In this document: in pieces, positions 7,514-44,628 of the stretch
Layout: each line of letters begins with the position of its first letter
Numbering within the stretch: position 1 is the first letter of the stretch
Assembly (NCBI RefSeq): GCF_963676685.1
Contig: NC_092345.1
Location: 96,906,001 to 96,970,000 of the forward strand
Reading direction: 5' to 3'
Source of the DNA: Mytilus edulis
Taxonomy: Eukaryota
DNA: 64,000 nucleotides
The notes under the pieces: model-generated
Databases searched by the model: none
Told to the model about the DNA's origin: nothing
The model's input: the letters and a program-made list of their open reading frames with translations, nothing else
Program-made: the position numbers and the translations under genes

Positions 7514-7560
<47 letters not shown>
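7435..7560. repeat. Two (TA)n microsatellite tracts separated by a ~46-bp island
   Basis: Seen directly; abuts the 3' end of the Penelope-like element. Confidence 0.9.
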
Positions 7561-7564
<4 letters not shown>

Positions 7565-7646
7565 ATCACTATAATAAATGTTCTTGTGTATAGAAATATA
7601 TATAGATTACTAGAAAATCCAACATTTCCGGTATGAATAGTTTTAA

Positions 7647-7688
7647 TTCACTAGTACTTTCATGTTTAAATAACAATCTTCAGGTGAA
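7647..7688 (-). ncRNA. Minimal type I hammerhead ribozyme of the Penelope 3' region
   Basis: Minus strand reads ttcac-CTGAAGA-ttgtt.attt.aaacat-GAAA-gtac-TA-gtgaa: stem I ttcac/gtgaa, stem II tgtt/aaca, palindromic stem III AGTACT, cleavage triplet CUA. Confidence 0.8.
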
Positions 7689-7821
7689 ACTATACATGAT
7701 TAACGTAACTATGTAACGGTAGGTATGTAACGTCATAGTTGTCGTTGAGTATATAAAGGGAGATAAATCGTATTACACTTAGTCTATATATAGAAGTATG
7801 GAGCGTCATTATTACACAATA

Positions 7822-8252
7822 CACCTTATCGCTATTCCCGGCTGACCCGTCCGCTTGAACTTTTGACGTCAACAACAATCACTTTTCCATTGTGGCGTCA
7901 GACATTTTGTTTTATGACGTCAAAATTTTACGGGAACCTGTGTGATTTCCAGCAATGGCGGACAAATAGCGATAAGGCAGCAACCATTTGATTTTCTGGG
8001 GGGGGCTATGGTTTTTTTTGGAAAAAAAAGTTTGTTTCCAGTTTTTGGAGAAAAAAAAAATTTGTTTTTGATTCTAAGAAAAAAAAATTGTTTGTTTCAC
8101 CCTCAGCTGCCACTATATGTAATGCTAAAATTGAAAGAAAAAAATTGTTTTCGACTTGTCGCGAAAAAAATAGATGCGGCGAAAAAAAAAATTTGTCCAG
8201 AAAAAAAAACCATAGCCCCCCCCAGAAAATCAAATGGTTGCTGCCTAAGGTG
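7822..8252. mobile_element. TA-flanked MITE (TIR CACCTTATCGCTATT) inserted at the end of the Penelope ORF
   Basis: TA|caccttatcgctatt ... aatagcgataaggtg|TA once the nested MITE at 7976-8245 is removed. Confidence 0.75.
7976..8245. mobile_element. PIF/Harbinger-type MITE nested in the right TIR of the 7822 MITE
   Basis: TIR GGCAGCAACCATTTGATTTTCTGGGGGGG with TAA target duplication (7973-7975, 8246-8248). Confidence 0.85.
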
Positions 8253-8254
8253 TA

Positions 8255-9114
8255 TAGAAAATGCATAGTTTGCATTCAATCGTGATTTAAATTTTGAAAT
8301 AAAATGTTTTTCCTTTACTTCTCGTGTAATGTCACAACCCATATTCATTTTATAAAATGGGAATATTTTAAAAAATCCCCCTCCACATTCGTCTAAATGT
8401 TTGCTTAGTGGGATTTTTCTGTATTGTGGCTGCCTTATATGTTGTCTATGAATGCGCACTCTTTCTGTTACACTGTTCCCTGTTTGGCCGATATAAATTT
8501 CCTGGCAACCATTACATTTAATGCAATAAATTAAGTTCTCGGATTTACAGGTAATGTCTTCGTTGGTAAAAAGTGATAGACCATTAGGTATGTCCATTCC
8601 CTTGCCGACATGGATATACGGACATGCTCCACAACGACTATCTCGACATTTTGACACACTGAATGTTCTTTGTTGGTCGAATCGTGCTCGGGTCAATAGT
8701 CGTTTAAGGTTTTGTGGTTGCCGTTTACTTTGTAGAAGTGTTTCTGTATTAATTAAACGGCGCATCTTTTCATCCTGATCAAGAATATGTAAATTTGCCT
8801 TTGCAACGGGAATAATTTTAAAGTTCCGGGGATTATGTGTAATAACGAACGGTATTTTATCGTTGTTATTACTCTGCTCCTCGCAGGTGGAGCGTAGTTG
8901 GTTGGTTGGGATCTGTTTTGCCATTTGAATTCCCCTTTCTATTAAAGTCTCTGGATAGTTTTGCTTGATCAAAAATGATTGTAGTTCCTCTAGACGGTCT
9001 TCTCTCAAATGTTCATCCTCGACTACTGTACATATTTTTCTTGCTAAACAATAGGGGATATTCCTTTTGGTATGAGATGGGTGGCACGAATTAAAATCTA
9101 AATACTGATGAGTA
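8255..9114 (-). pseudogene. Penelope RT thumb, Cys linker and GIY-YIG endonuclease (part of ORF 8103-9173)
   Basis: THQYLDFNSCHPSHTKRNIPY thumb, CRDSRCGAC linker, NLIYCIKCNGCQEIYIGQT..R..H..REVKE; separated from RT by a 4-bp insertion and interrupted at the 3' end by a MITE. Confidence 0.88.
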
Positions 9115-10479
9115 CGTATCAGTACCTTTGTAAAAAATATCGGTTTTAATTTCAGTGCCATCTTTAATAACAAGAATGTCTAGAAACGGTAATTGGTTAA
9201 AATTTCCATCCTTCGTAAATTTTATGGAGGTATGAAGGTTATTTAGTATGTCCGAAAATAGTTGGAGTTCTTCGTCGGATTTGTTCCAGATAATGAAGCA
9301 ATCATCAAGGTATCTTTTCCATGATAATTCGAATTCTCTTGCAAATTCAACTCCAAAATTATTTTCAACTTCTTGATACAGTCTTTGTTCAAGGAAGCCC
9401 ATGACTAATGTTGCATAGGTTGGTGCAAATTTTGTTCCCATTGCTGTCCCCCGATGTTGCAAATAGTTCTTGCCATTGAAATAGAAAGAATTGTTTTCAA
9501 GAATTAGTTTAGTAGAATCGAGTATAAAGTCAACAGTGAATCGATTTGGTATTGCATCTCGATGTTTTGCAACCCAATATTGTATTGCCTCTATTCCTAA
9601 ATCGTGTGGAATGTTCGTATATAGGCTTGTGACATCGAAGCTTACTAAACGAGCGTGAACCGGTGCTATTTTTGGCAGGTGTGAGAGAAAATCTATATCG
9701 TCTCTTATATAGCTCGGTACATATTTACACAATGGTTTCAAAATTATGTCTAAAAAGTTGCTTAGTCTGTGAGTGGGACTTGCTGGACCTGCAATGATGG
9801 GTCTAAGTTTAAGATCCGTCGGTTTTTGCACTTTTATGTATTCGTTTTGCTGAGAATTAATAGCCGATTGGATCTCCTTTGATTTATGGATTTTTGGAAG
9901 GCCATAAAAGTTACTCGTTTTCCTTTCGAAATTTTTCAAGTAATCATACTCTTTTTCCGTAGTGGCCGTTGTGTATTTGTTCAGTACGGTATTCATTCTT
10001 CTCTTGACTAGATGATCTATATTATCAGGAATTTCTGAGTAAAATGTCGAATCATTGAGTTGTTCTTCAACTTTAATTCTATAGTAGTCTGAATCCATTA
10101 TTACTATTGCCCCACCTTTATCGGCCTGCTTAATTACTATGCTTTTATCGTTTCTTAGATTTTGGAGTGCTGACTTTTCGCCTTTAGTTAAGTTGTGGTT
10201 GACTTTAATTGGTGTAAGTGGGTAGTTGGACAAATTTTCGATGTAGTCATCTAAACACTTGTTTCTTCCGGTATTTGGAATAAAGGTAGATTTGTTTCTT
10301 ACTAACGAGTCGTCCTCCTCACTTTCTTTATCCGCGAAATATTCAGTGAGTCTCAATCTTCGACAAAATTTCAACATGTCTGCTTTAAGTTCATCATGAT
10401 CCACAGAGGGAGTTGGTGTAAATTTTAAACCCCTTTTAAGCAATTTCAGTTCATTGTCATTAAATACTCTGTTGGACAA
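9091..10479 (-). CDS. Penelope-like reverse transcriptase (frame open further upstream without ATG; frameshifted near 9115)
   Basis: Complete set of RT core motifs including catalytic YLDD. Confidence 0.92.
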   Translation of the reverse strand: MSNRVFNDNELKLLKRGLKFTPTPSVDHDELKADMLKFCRRLRLTEYFADKESEEDDSLVRNKSTFIPNTGRNKCLDDYIENLSNYPLTPIKVNHNLTKGEKSALQNLRNDKSIVIKQADKGGAIVIMDSDYYRIKVEEQLNDSTFYSEIPDNIDHLVKRRMNTVLNKYTTATTEKEYDYLKNFERKTSNFYGLPKIHKSKEIQSAINSQQNEYIKVQKPTDLKLRPIIAGPASPTHRLSNFLDIILKPLCKYVPSYIRDDIDFLSHLPKIAPVHARLVSFDVTSLYTNIPHDLGIEAIQYWVAKHRDAIPNRFTVDFILDSTKLILENNSFYFNGKNYLQHRGTAMGTKFAPTYATLVMGFLEQRLYQEVENNFGVEFAREFELSWKRYLDDCFIIWNKSDEELQLFSDILNNLHTSIKFTKDGNFNQLPFLDILVIKDGTEIKTDIFYKGTDTYSSVFRF

Positions 10480-10502
10480 ATTTATAATTTTTGGATCGAC
10501 TT

Positions 10503-11195
10503 TTAGGCATGTTTTAGACTGGTTTCTTCTGGATTTTTCTCCCTCTCGGGAGTTATTTGGCCCGACACTAAAAAATGAATACGTTTTTCTTGATTCTGGC
10601 GCTGATTAGTTTTTACATAATTTACATAATTTTGCCGGTTGTTTTGAACGTTATTCTTATTGATACGGGATCGGTTCACTGATTTATTTCTTGGACGGCG
10701 ATTTTGTTGGTAGTTTCCTCTACCAGCTGACTGCGTATTCGCTGTCCGACGTTTTTGAGACGAAGCATTGCGAACTACTTCCGCATATGATTTTCGTTCT
10801 CCTTTTGTCGACACTGACCGACTTTGCCTTCTTGAAATGTTTTTCGAAGTATTTTTTCTGGCTGTCGAACTTGAGCGTCTGCGATTGGTTATCTTCTTTT
10901 GTCCACTTGGTTGTCTTCTGGTATTTTGACCAGTTTGAAGTTTTGATCGTTGTTGCCGTTTCTTGTATTTATTCGGTTTACGATTATCTTCAAAAGACTG
11001 CTCTTTACCGTAATTTTTTATGTAATTTTCTAAGAATTCTTGCTTCTTATGCCATAAATTACGGGATTTTTCCTCTTCTTTGAAAATATCACGTGTCCAA
11101 ATTTCCTTAAGCTTTTCAGCTATTCTTTCCGTTGATATCTTTTGTATTCCTGCCACCATTTCAGCATCAATTGCGTTGTATTTCTCAGTGTAGCT
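10503..11195 (-). CDS. Penelope ORF1 / N-terminal helical and basic (R/K/S/N-rich) protein, 5'-truncated
   Basis: Part of ORF 10503-11324; helical segment followed by a basic low-complexity tract; overlaps the RT frame in -1. Confidence 0.65.
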   Translation of the reverse strand, partial: SYTEKYNAIDAEMVAGIQKISTERIAEKLKEIWTRDIFKEEEKSRNLWHKKQEFLENYIKNYGKEQSFEDNRKPNKYKKRQQRSKLQTGQNTRRQPSGQKKITNRRRSSSTARKNTSKNISRRQSRSVSTKGERKSYAEVVRNASSQKRRTANTQSAGRGNYQQNRRPRNKSVNRSRINKNNVQNNRQNYVNYVKTNQRQNQEKRIHFLVSGQITPEREKNPEETSLKHA

Positions 11196-41412: not shown

Positions 41413-42830
41413 TCAAGGACAATGTACATATGATAGAAGATAAAATAGTAACATAAGGTATCTCCATACAAGGTATATTCAAGCATCTAGATCTTCTACT
41501 TTCTGAAATATAAATCTTTAAAAAAAACATTGCATCAGGTGCTTGTTGTAGCTGTATATCATATATTGTCATTACCAAAAACTTTTAAAGCAAGGATAAA
41601 GACAAATGAAAGATATCACTATTAAGTCAAACTAAAAACAACAATTATAAATAGATGTATTGTGACATTGCTGTATGAAATTTACTATGAATAGTTAATA
41701 CAGGCAAGGTTCTATTAGAGAAGATAGCAAGATTTCATAACAGCAGCTTAAATGTATAATGTTCTTTGTGCTTGCTTTCAGTAACTGGCTTTGAAATAGC
41801 TGTCTGTAACTGTGAAGACCCTCAGATTTTTACTTTATGTTTTTTTGTTGTTGGGATGTTCAAATGTACCAGTACCCTGTCACGTCCACGCTGATATTTT
41901 GTTATTATTTCTATTTGTATCCATCTGATGAATTGAGCCCTTTTCAACCATTTTTATAGTTTGTTCTTATGTTGTTCTATTTCACAACTGTCCCAGGTTA
42001 GGGGAGGGTTGAGATCCCGGTAACATGTTTAACCCCTGCCACATAATGTATGTATGTGTCTGTTCCAAGTCAGATGCCTGTAATTCAGTAGTTATCATTT
42101 GTATCTCTGTTACATATTAGTTTGCATTCAATTTTGTTTGTACATTAATAATAAGGCTGTTAGTTTTCTCGTTTGAATTGTTTTAATACATTTGTCATTT
42201 CAAGGCCTTTTAAGGCGGACTATGTGTTATAGGCTTTGCCTACTGTTAAAGGCTGTATGGTGGCCTATAGTTAATTTCTGTGCTATTTGGTTTATTGTCC
42301 TTAAAATCTGTATTACTTCATAAAAAGTTAAAATTTTAGGTAATACCTATGATGTCTATAAGTTTTCAGGTTCATATTCAATTAGTCTGAGATTACTCTG
42401 ATGTTGTAAAGCAAAATTATATCCGGGTGAAATTTGATCCGGAGGAAAAAATGTTACAGTAGTTTTTTTATCCGGAGGAAAATATTTCCCTGGATATTTT
42501 TTACTTTGCCGTGAAATTCTATCTGGGTAGTGAACTTAGTGAATAGTCATGATAGTTAATAGCAAAAAATTATCTTTTACAAATACTATGAAATAATAAT
42601 AGTGTATTTGAATTAAACCTATTTTGTTCAGAAAAAAAGTATTATAATGGGAATTATTTCACAAATTATCATAGAAAAAATTTCCTGAAAAAATCAAGTA
42701 AATATCATTCTTTTAAAAACAGAAAATTATCATTAAACATAAGAAAGAAAACCAGAAATAATTTCAAAGATGGTAACTGTGAAATAATATCATGATTAAA
42801 TAAGGTAAGTGAAATACATGCAAAAGTAAA

Positions 42831-44628
42831 GACGGGTTATCCGTTAAAATACTGAAATTGGCAAAACCAGCAGTTGTGACACCAATAACAAAATTAATAA
42901 ACAAATCTATTGAGCACTCTGTATTTCCAGACAAACTTAAAGAGGCTCAAGTGGTGCCACTTCACAAGAAGAATAGTCAACTGGAAGTTGGCAACTATAG
43001 GCCAGTCAGTATTTTACCTGTTGTATCAAAGTTTTTCGAGAGAGCCATCTTCAAGCAGCTAGTTGATTTTTTTCAAAATATATTTCACCCATATCTGTCT
43101 GCCTTTAGAGCAGGATACGGCTGCCAGACAGCACTTTTGAAAATCATTGAGGATTGGAAGAAGGCTATTGATGATAATCAATATATTGCTGCTGTGTTGA
43201 TGGACCTCTCGAAAGCCTTTGATTGTCTTCCTCATGATTTGCTAATTTTAAAACTAAAGGCATATGGGTTATCGGAAACAGCTTTAAGTTTAATAGACAG
43301 CTATTTAAGTAAAAGAAAACAATGTGTAAAAGTTGGTATAGATATTAGTACCTGGAAAGATATATATAAAGGTGTGCCGCAAGGCTCTATATTAGGACCT
43401 GTACTTTTTAACATTTTCTTGAATGACATTTTTCATTTTGTTTCAAACAGTTCATTGTATAATTATGCAGATGACAATACTTTATCATATTCACACTCTG
43501 ATATAGACACTGTGGTAAATATTTTAGAAAAAGAAAGCTTAGAGCTAATAAATTGGTTCAGTCTAAATCATATGAAGGCCAACACTGACAAATTTCAGGC
43601 AATAGCCATAGGCAAGAAAACTGAAAATAAAAACATTTCATTTAATTTAGATGGTAATATTATACATTGTGAAAAAGAAGTAAAATTATTGGGTGTAACA
43701 ATTGATTATCAACTTAAGTTTGATGCCCATATTTCCAATATTTGTAAAAAGGCATCAAGACAATTACATGTACTTAAACGTATTGGTAAAAATTTAACAA
43801 AATTAGGTAGACTTACTATATATTATTCATTTATAATGTCAAATTTTAATTATTGTCCTGTAATATGGCACTTCTGTGGTGAGTGTAACACCAGAAAAAT
43901 AGAGAAAATACAGGAGCGTGCCCTTAGATTTATATATGAAGACTATTGTAGTACAAAATGTACCTATGAACAACTATTAATTAAATCAAAATTACCAAGC
44001 TTAGAAATCAGAAGAATTAGAATGATAGCAATAGAGGTCTATAAAATTATTAATAAACAATGTCCATTATATCTACATGAACTTATTGAAATAAAAAAAT
44101 GTAATTACTCTTTTAGATATAACAACATAGCAGATGTTCCCAGGGTAAGGACAACTACCCATGGGCTACACTCATTTAGATATGCAGGAGCCAAACTCTG
44201 GAACGAACTGCCAAATAAAATGAGGGACGAAATGCCATTGGGTCAGTTCAAAAGTTTGGTTGGTAATTGGGAGGGCAGTTCGTGTCAGTGTTCCTCCTGC
44301 AGATCTCAATGAGCTGTAGATCAGTTTATTTATTTATCATGTATACTCTGGCTTTTAAATTATTTGGCATAATTTTTTTATATGTGTTCTTAATGCTTGA
44401 ATTACTTTTAGTGCTTTATAATTGCTATTGCATGAATGTTAGTTTATCTGCATTTTATGTTTGCTTATATGCTTTAATTGTGCTAATTAATTGTTGTGCT
44501 TGATAACATTATTTATTTTGCATGTTTTATGTGTTTTATGTATTGTGCTTGTCTTATATGTATGTCGGATAAAAGCTCTACAGAGCTTATGTTGTATTGT
44601 TATATGTATAACCGACTTTAAATAAATC
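42831..44628 (+). mobile_element. 5'-truncated CR1/L2-group LINE in DDX11 intron 1 (antisense)
   Basis: RT ORF followed by a ~320-bp T-rich 3' UTR ending in aataaatc. Confidence 0.85.
42858..44312 (+). CDS. Non-LTR retrotransposon reverse transcriptase (endonuclease domain missing)
   Basis: NYRPVSILP, DLSKAFD, GVPQGSILGP, YADD, KLLGV, KLWN.LP, C-terminal CQCSSC; uninterrupted. Confidence 0.92.
   Translation: MAKPAVVTPITKLINKSIEHSVFPDKLKEAQVVPLHKKNSQLEVGNYRPVSILPVVSKFFERAIFKQLVDFFQNIFHPYLSAFRAGYGCQTALLKIIEDWKKAIDDNQYIAAVLMDLSKAFDCLPHDLLILKLKAYGLSETALSLIDSYLSKRKQCVKVGIDISTWKDIYKGVPQGSILGPVLFNIFLNDIFHFVSNSSLYNYADDNTLSYSHSDIDTVVNILEKESLELINWFSLNHMKANTDKFQAIAIGKKTENKNISFNLDGNIIHCEKEVKLLGVTIDYQLKFDAHISNICKKASRQLHVLKRIGKNLTKLGRLTIYYSFIMSNFNYCPVIWHFCGECNTRKIEKIQERALRFIYEDYCSTKCTYEQLLIKSKLPSLEIRRIRMIAIEVYKIINKQCPLYLHELIEIKKCNYSFRYNNIADVPRVRTTTHGLHSFRYAGAKLWNELPNKMRDEMPLGQFKSLVGNWEGSSCQCSSCRSQ

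Follow-up and report, generated by a model that had tools for sequence, protein, structure and literature searches.

A two-ORF Penelope-like element in Mytilus edulis

The window, i.e. the whole stretch of 64,000 nt of M. edulis DNA analysed here, contains on its minus strand a GIY-YIG Penelope-like retrotransposon (PLE) of Mytilus that possesses two ORFs along with a GIY-YIG domain in C-terminal position (Table 1). The translation of the RT frame matched the Pfam family PF00078 (RT, E 1.5e-8) and the C-terminal part matched PF01541 (GIY-YIG, E 7e-5); near-identical RT and ORF1 proteins (97-100% identity or same 90% cluster) carry the species name Mytilus edulis. In this family, the complete ORF1 is represented by the protein P0001 (415 aa), for which a confident helical core is predicted at about residues 85-245, together with a disordered basic tail. 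The model of P0001 displays no match in the PDB at E <= 0.001, and no Pfam family was found. The copy of the window is dead, being truncated in 5' and broken in the RT-EN frame. Its ORF1 frame is open from 11330 to 10503 (275 codons) and the first ~187 codons of ORF1 are missing, the 5' truncation being localized at about 11194, where contigs from sequencing runs diverge from the window sequence. A search in Rfam detected neither a hammerhead nor a frameshift element.

Table 1. Features of the Penelope-like element and of its interruption in the window (positions in the window).
Feature	Position	Strand	Remarks
ORF1, 3' part	10503..11194	-	About residues 188-415 of the 415-aa P0001, 99% identity to P0001; end of the helical domain, then basic low-complexity tail
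Overlap of ORF1 and RT, -1 relation	10503..10605	-	ORF1 stop TAA 10505-10503, 21 codons past the Leu codon
Slippery heptamer T TTT TTA	10569..10575	-	His-Phe-Leu in the ORF1 frame
GC-richer, U-poor segment 3' of the heptamer	10531..10565	-	51% GC vs 37% around; alternative short stems; candidate stimulator
RT frame, 504 codons	9091..10605	-	IINLS and GLKFTPTP motifs precede the first Met at 10377
Private 4-nt duplication	9112..9119	-	Breaks the RT-EN frame; in 4 of 4 runs the main contigs lack it
Thumb/linker and C-terminal GIY-YIG endonuclease	8254..9179	-	CX4CxxC linker motif; CxxC within the GIY-YIG core
Insertion of 433 nt	7821..8253		Interrupts the element 3' end; contig comparison
Element 3' end (pLTR region)	7561..7820	-	Stops at a (TA)n microsatellite near 7560; contig loose ends at 8254 resume here
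Minimal type-I hammerhead-like motif	7645..7689	-	CUGAAGA ... GAAA, palindromic GUAC loop; pattern match

The 433-nt insertion is MITE-like, with terminal inverted repeats of 8 bp. It holds a very high-depth palindrome with perfect arms of 45 bp (7975-8019 / 8202-8246), and its Rfam miRNA matches are far under the gathering score. On the other side of the element, a 716-codon ORF (13335-11188, minus strand) displays Cys-rich clusters and the motifs DGC..QYK and HAKGPQDA; it gave no match in Pfam, and its motif resembles that of a DNA-transposon transposase. This ORF is cut at the PLE junction and its expected continuation was not found within the window. The contigs of both repeats overlap on 11177-11194, which suggests a microhomology at this junction. 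Elsewhere in the window, the region 42813-44309 (plus strand) is presumably a fragment of a LINE-type RT, and the regions 38363-37182 and 34876-33389 (minus strand) are presumably exons of a DDX11/Chl1-like helicase gene, both being named from their motifs.

The junction between ORF1 and RT

A preliminary description of the locus had proposed that ORF1 and RT are joined by a programmed -1 frameshift, and its account of the reading frames proved accurate. The first T of the heptamer T TTT TTA is the third base of an ORF1 His codon, which gives the phase X XXY YYZ, and the RT frame, one step back from ORF1, reads the same letters as TTT TTT A. The RT frame is open from 10 codons ahead of the heptamer, and the ORF1 stop, announced at about 22 codons, lies 21 codons past it. 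As had been claimed, no ATG precedes the conserved NLS/GLKF motif: the sequence IINLS is found 29 codons past the heptamer and the first Met 66 codons past it. The ORF1 frame of 275 codons contains four in-phase XXXYYYZ heptamers; only one is of the T6A type, and this one is also the only one inside the overlap of ORF1 and RT.

Such a change of frame could be produced by a private 1-bp indel or a homopolymer error in a single-ORF element, all the more so as the window copy carries a private frame break near 9112, and single-ORF PLEs (e.g. L064, L067, L079, L086-L088) and one decayed locus with a deletion in its T run are present among the loci described below. Contigs from four runs (four studies; 24 runs found) were therefore compared with the window. 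In 4 of 4 runs a contig spans the junction without gap (9910-10876, 10160-11194, 9218-11194 and 8254-11194) and keeps the -1 arrangement, in a comparison based on contigs and not on raw RNA reads, where copies are collapsed, rare variants are dropped, indels are judged among those listed and one run may be the source sample. The duplication at 9112 is absent from the same contigs or their neighbours, so that the method separates private from shared indels. Two M. edulis proteins encoded on other contigs (P0275 and P0276) display the same ORF1 ending, and the -1 arrangement was found in relatives whose RT identity is about 40-50% or lower. The run contigs, the Phe-Leu motif of the ORF1 proteins and the related junction DNA exclude a private indel, to which we leave next to no probability.

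Conservation of the junction in ORF1 proteins

The protein P0001 was used as query with phmmer, which recovered 428 cluster representatives (50% identity). A full ORF1-RT-EN fusion was not found among the best 150 of these 428 matches, all being at most 706 aa long. From 154 proteins, the 92 that continue beyond the conserved core for 80 aa or more were retained, and 62 (fragments or sequences without core match) were dropped. Phe-Leu (FL) is present within the last 60 residues of 72 of the 92 near-complete ORF1 relatives, compared with nine of 92 for the preceding 60 residues and with a mean of 7.7 (maximum 18) in 2000 shuffles. Three further proteins contain FF instead of FL, and 17 have neither. 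The conservation of FL extends to relatives at 20-50% identity. The residue ahead of FL is K, Q, E, M or W in none of the 72 proteins vs 20.5% in the background (P 7e-8; the P values for ORF1 proteins are inflated by kinship and the matches are mostly 25-40% identical to the query), as expected if the corresponding codon must end in T. The invariance of F393 in alignment A1 was not used as evidence, its 59 rows having been picked for FL or FF.

In P0114, P0120, P0133, P0147 and the locus L130, ORF1 ends with x-F-R/H and not with F-L. The downstream residues of P0114 are still in register with those of P0088, and a non-canonical slip site is possible there.

Conservation of the junction in DNA loci

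The ORF1 alignment being too divergent for a locus search, the RT alignment was used, and 127 loci (47 + 80) were chosen by their RT motifs and not by the heptamer; L130 was added by means of the ORF1 profile. Most of the fetched loci lack the junction or come from other PLE groups. An RT tree of the fetched loci only showed that the window is included in a clade with 98% local support, to which L052, L054 and L060 were attributed by similarity and not in the tree. An in-phase T6A or T6G is present in eight of ten junctions of this clade (L002, L049, L050, L051, L052, L054, L056 and L058, of which L049 and L056 are close relatives). Concerning the other two, L060, which is a degraded copy from the L051 family, contains T5 in place of T6, and L130 reads T TAT TTT C, without heptamer, and keeps the overlap. 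A separate EN+ clade (L065, L073 and L080) displays the same T6A arrangement behind a long ORF1 that is unmatched by the profile, and further EN+ loci of the set have a single ORF. The phase T TTT TTR is kept in 12 of 12 heptamer-bearing junctions, and an in-phase T6R occurs at only two of 10,285 other coding positions. Thus the alignment of related copies, which the preliminary description had put forward as a check, confirmed the T6A/T6G and the -1 overlap in eight of ten clade junctions, whereas a conserved downstream structure did not emerge from the 12 junctions.

The ORF1 profile detected two loci in five genomes (L129, which is L002, and L130); among further genomes, 0 of 2, 0 of 380 and 0 of 122 matched. 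The 18 loci recovered with a DNA pattern of the window's sub-clade contain neither ORF1 nor RT; the locus searches with single proteins gave one weak match, then none, and the search of viral contigs with the RT alignment gave no match. The locus L049 is a perfect tandem with a unit of 3,699 nt (1,655 of 1,655 nt identical) and an intact RT-EN frame. The hammerhead pattern is also found in L002, L049, L051, L052 and L056, this loose pattern matching inside some ORFs as well.

Some observations concern the loci themselves. Several animal-type PLEs (L049, L002, L003-L007 and L031) come from bacterial MAG contigs, probably by host contamination, and the labels of similar proteins read Solemya symbiont or Thiodiazotropha. 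The long ORF1 of L065 (917-2845), L073 (1-975) and L080 (326-2857) contains a C-terminal GDS..G..N..DG.H, followed by the in-phase T6A before RT, and an EN was seen in L073 and L080. These motifs are presumably those of an SGNH esterase; neither Pfam nor the PDB gave support for an esterase in these ORF1 sequences. In a distinct RT clade with 100% support (L075, L082, L096, L097, L107, L108, L109, L111, L116 and L122; nine placed), ORF1 is long, an in-phase A AAA AAC/T occurs close to where the RT frame starts, and the two frames overlap in the -1 relation over about 200 codons. No endonuclease was seen in the two RT frames read; this clade is a candidate for a second frameshift type. Finally, L009 has its N-terminal domain in another frame, with an in-phase G GGT TTT (2713-2719) in the overlap, a single example that could be due to decay.

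Is the frame change made by the ribosome?

The RT frame opens 0 to 15 codons ahead of the heptamer, and only 0, 1 and 1 codons ahead of it in L050, L002 and L051, respectively, which pins the frame change to the heptamer since there is no room for it earlier. Three other ways of producing RT-EN from this point were considered. RNA polymerase or RT could add one U in the U6 run and so bring RT in frame in some transcripts; a homopolymer is indeed present at the site, and an added base would give the same frame change. Codon phase is irrelevant to such a transcriptional slippage, whereas a single phase is maintained, both in the proteins (FL in 72 of 92) and in the DNA (T TTT TTR in 12 of 12), and the T run stays at six. 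We regard this explanation as very improbable.

The site TTTTTTAG could also be the 3' splice acceptor of an intron joining ORF1 to RT, or such an intron could lie close by. T6AG resembles a polypyrimidine tract followed by AG, the codon after FL begins with G in 55 of 72 proteins, and introns are known in PLEs (Arkhipova 2013; Craig et al. 2021). Furthermore, the M. galloprovincialis gene model P0090 (VDH91710.1) joins ORF1 and RT in frame, apparently by a predicted intron. Nevertheless, this model omits the conserved INLS motif, five of 12 junctions have no AG at the site, and the presence of an acceptor would give no reason for ORF1 to remain open across the site in one phase, as it always does. 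Among the joints listed in four runs, one of which was guessed to be RNA, none is located at the junction. The intron that the preliminary description had named as a possible refutation is thus unlikely, and we rate splicing a little below transcriptional slippage.

Lastly, FL could be merely a conserved ORF1 motif, RT-EN being translated separately by reinitiation, leaky scanning or a non-AUG start. The search for RT relatives gave 1,116 matches; among the best 120, start positions are scattered and many have a Met inside the N-terminal motif, and the Met present two codons past the heptamer in the -1 frame of L073 and L080 would allow reinitiation. Against a separate start, no Met precedes the N-terminal RT motif in ten of 12 junctions (the window and nine others), the residue before FL always permits a final T, and the codon choice is fixed far beyond the needs of the peptide, the probability of the observed codons under conservation of the peptide only being 2e-11 over 11 junctions (kinship ignored). 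This possibility is about as improbable as splicing.

A programmed -1 ribosomal frameshifting on U UUU UUR is therefore the best explanation that the sequences offer, with a probability that we put at roughly 85%. The proposal is supported by the overlap, the phase, the family-wide state, the conservation of the heptamer and the fact that RT has no conserved start. The junctions L060 and L130 without heptamer, the 17 of 92 ORF1 proteins without FL or FF and the lack of a structure better than shuffles count against it.

The downstream region and the ORF1 stop codon

The preliminary description had also pointed to pairing elements behind the heptamer as a possible stimulator. These elements are present in the window (TCGGG 10565-10561 / CCCGA 10550-10546, and a hairpin at 10552-10539), and the two pairings share bases and are mutually exclusive. 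Their role as stimulator was not borne out, the region folding no better than shuffles (z -0.59 and -0.41) and the hairpins not being conserved. The best hairpins and H-type pseudoknots starting 3-9 nt downstream of the heptamer were compared in 12 junctions with dinucleotide shuffles (simple energy model, 25-60 shuffles per test) and, taken together, did not exceed them (Fisher p 0.48 and 0.17, respectively). Taken singly, three junctions (those of the window, L002 and L050) have p values of 0.02-0.05; for the best pseudoknot of the window, p is about 0.05 without correction for the 12 loci. No clear compensatory change was seen by eye between L049 and L056. What the 12 junctions have in common is that, in 12 of 12, the 35 nt past the heptamer are GC-richer than their surroundings and poor in U (3-20%).

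A new regularity of the ORF1 junctions was observed in the position of the stop codon. Of the 75 proteins with FL or FF, none ends within nine residues past the motif (0 stops in 750 positions, distances 0-9), 16 end exactly ten residues past it and 59 end further away, the stop rate at distances 11-19 being 5.7% per codon. By composition alone, the probability of having no stop in ten codons is 0.69 per sequence and falls to 1e-4 even for only 25 independent lineages. The peak at ten has a binomial P of 3e-6 before kinship correction and is found in at least five branches of a quick tree. A stop distance of ten was also found in five of 12 DNA junctions, the distance in the window being 21. 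Beyond this first peak the signal for a ten-codon periodicity is weak (period 10, p about 0.02, uncorrected for kinship), and the periodicity is not established.

Ten codons correspond approximately to the spacing of one ribosome (disome). In this large clade of EN+ PLEs, the stimulus of the frameshift might thus be a ribosome engaged in termination at the stop of ORF1 and not a fixed RNA fold: where the stop is the 11th codon past the Leu codon, the trailing ribosome would collide with the terminating one while translocating off U UUU UUR. Such a collision would account for the floor at 0-9, the pile-up at 10 and the absence of a conserved structure. However, 59 of the 75 stops lie further away and the periodicity is weak, and we consider a terminating ribosome to be an improbable stimulus. 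The floor is explained equally well by the other reading, in which a U-poor element of about 30 nt excludes stops and selection places the stop immediately after this element; a nearby 0-frame stop raises frameshifting in SARS-CoV-2 (Bhatt et al. 2021, PMC8168617). A variable GC-rich element of 30 nt is the most likely stimulus, and it would be helped by the nearby ORF1 stop.

Proposed expression of RT-EN

In the proposed scheme, the element would have a unit of about 3.7-3.9 kb composed of the hammerhead/pLTR, ORF1 and then RT-EN in the -1 frame. ORF1 (about 350-470 aa) would provide a helical domain with a basic disordered tail, and RT-EN (about 750 aa) would have no conserved AUG of its own. 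Most ribosomes would end ORF1 10-40 codons past U UUU UUR, and a minority would slip back one base by tandem slippage and produce an ORF1-RT-EN protein of about 1,150 aa; the fusion predicted for L049 has 1,151 aa. We infer from the junctions the slip of the ribosome, its rate, the role of ORF1 as an abundant RNA-binding component and the stimulus. The frameshift may in this manner control the stoichiometry of ORF1 versus ORF1-RT-EN.

The clade is large and is seen in bivalves and marine metagenomes. Comprising several hundred ORF1 clusters or more (428 at 50% identity), it seems to express RT-EN in the manner of gag-pol, and consequently such elements are annotated as broken, N-terminally truncated or, as in P0090, falsely spliced. 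That a separate RT clade, whose ORF1 looks unrelated, has this signal too suggests either a repeated gain or an old state that was often lost. More than 70 natural junctions that combine one heptamer, varied downstream sequences and a sharp stop rule represent a test bed for the relation between 0-frame termination and -1 frameshifting.

Comparison with known systems

Judged by its sequence, the element is an EN+ PLE with Neptune-type features that lacks the single-ORF organization. Its RT is of the PLE type, with PF00078 and the N-terminal motifs NLS/GLKF, DKG and YGLPKIHK as in the alignment of the PMC8557442 supplement. Two cysteines are placed between GIY and YIG as in the EN+ type (CCHH), the CxxC and the downstream histidines being read. 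The hammerhead and tandem arrangement of EN+ elements are represented by the pattern at 7689-7645, which Rfam did not recognize as a hammerhead, and by the tandem of L049. The canonical EN+ PLEs are called single-ORF by Craig et al. (2021, PMC8557442), and the single-ORF EN+ PLEs are opposed to two-ORF EN-deficient PLEs by Arkhipova and Yushenova (2019); in contrast, two overlapping ORFs in -1 relation are found throughout the clade of the window. Neptune possesses the motif CX2-5CxxC in the RT-EN linker, and the Mytilus element has CX4CxxC upstream of GIY-YIG; this motif is common to Neptune, Nematis and Naiad and so is not diagnostic alone (Craig et al. 2021). Unlike Neptune and the canonical EN+ PLEs, the Mytilus element has its N-terminal part in a separate ORF1, in another frame. 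With hhalign there was no more than a hint (probability 1.9%, E 0.026, with P.PRKF on PKGL) that ORF1 is homologous to the N-terminal domain carried in frame by single-ORF PLEs. Athena and Coprina (EN-deficient, with telomeric attachment) are ruled out by the fused GIY-YIG and the (TA)n 3' end.

According to the legend of Fig. 1 in Craig et al. (2021, PMC8557442; bioRxiv 10.1101/2021.04.23.441226), a frameshift accompanied by a pseudoknot can set ORF1 apart. This legend does not name the PLE types concerned, and the figure may already mark an EN+ type. Since some type of PLE has already been published with a frameshift behind ORF1, the idea is less new than the preliminary description implied. 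The elements meant in the legend are reportedly the Athena/Terminon elements of Arkhipova and colleagues (2017). These elements resemble the Mytilus element by a helical or coiled-coil ORF1 upstream of a PLE RT, joined to it by a frameshift, and by a hammerhead in the terminal repeat. They differ from it in that a GIY-YIG endonuclease is fused to the C-terminus in Mytilus, in that the Mytilus element stops at (TA)n and not at telomeric repeats, and in that no pseudoknot emerged clearly for it from the comparison with shuffles. Esterases in Neptune-like or Penelope-like elements are described by Rodriguez (2017) and Schneider (2013), whose relevant passages state no frameshift, and the available text of Arkhipova (2013), of Cervera (2014), of a retrozyme preprint of 2026 and of a telomerase review contains nothing on PLE frameshifting. 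A frameshift in EN+ PLEs was not found described in the literature searched, a set without Arkhipova 2006/2017, Repbase reports, bioRxiv supplements and figures.

Outside the PLEs, the -1 frameshift signal of HIV-1 gag-pol is composed of U UUU UUA and a stem-loop. The mussel junction shares with HIV-1 gag-pol and with coronavirus 1a/1b the same kind of heptamer, a structural ORF placed before a polymerase ORF in the -1 frame and a nearby 0-frame stop. It differs from them in belonging to a non-LTR-type retroelement, in accepting A or G as the last base of the heptamer and in that no conserved 3' structure was found. The 0-frame stop of SARS-CoV-2 lies at five codons, whereas the ORF1 stop of the 75 proteins with FL or FF is never nearer than ten codons.
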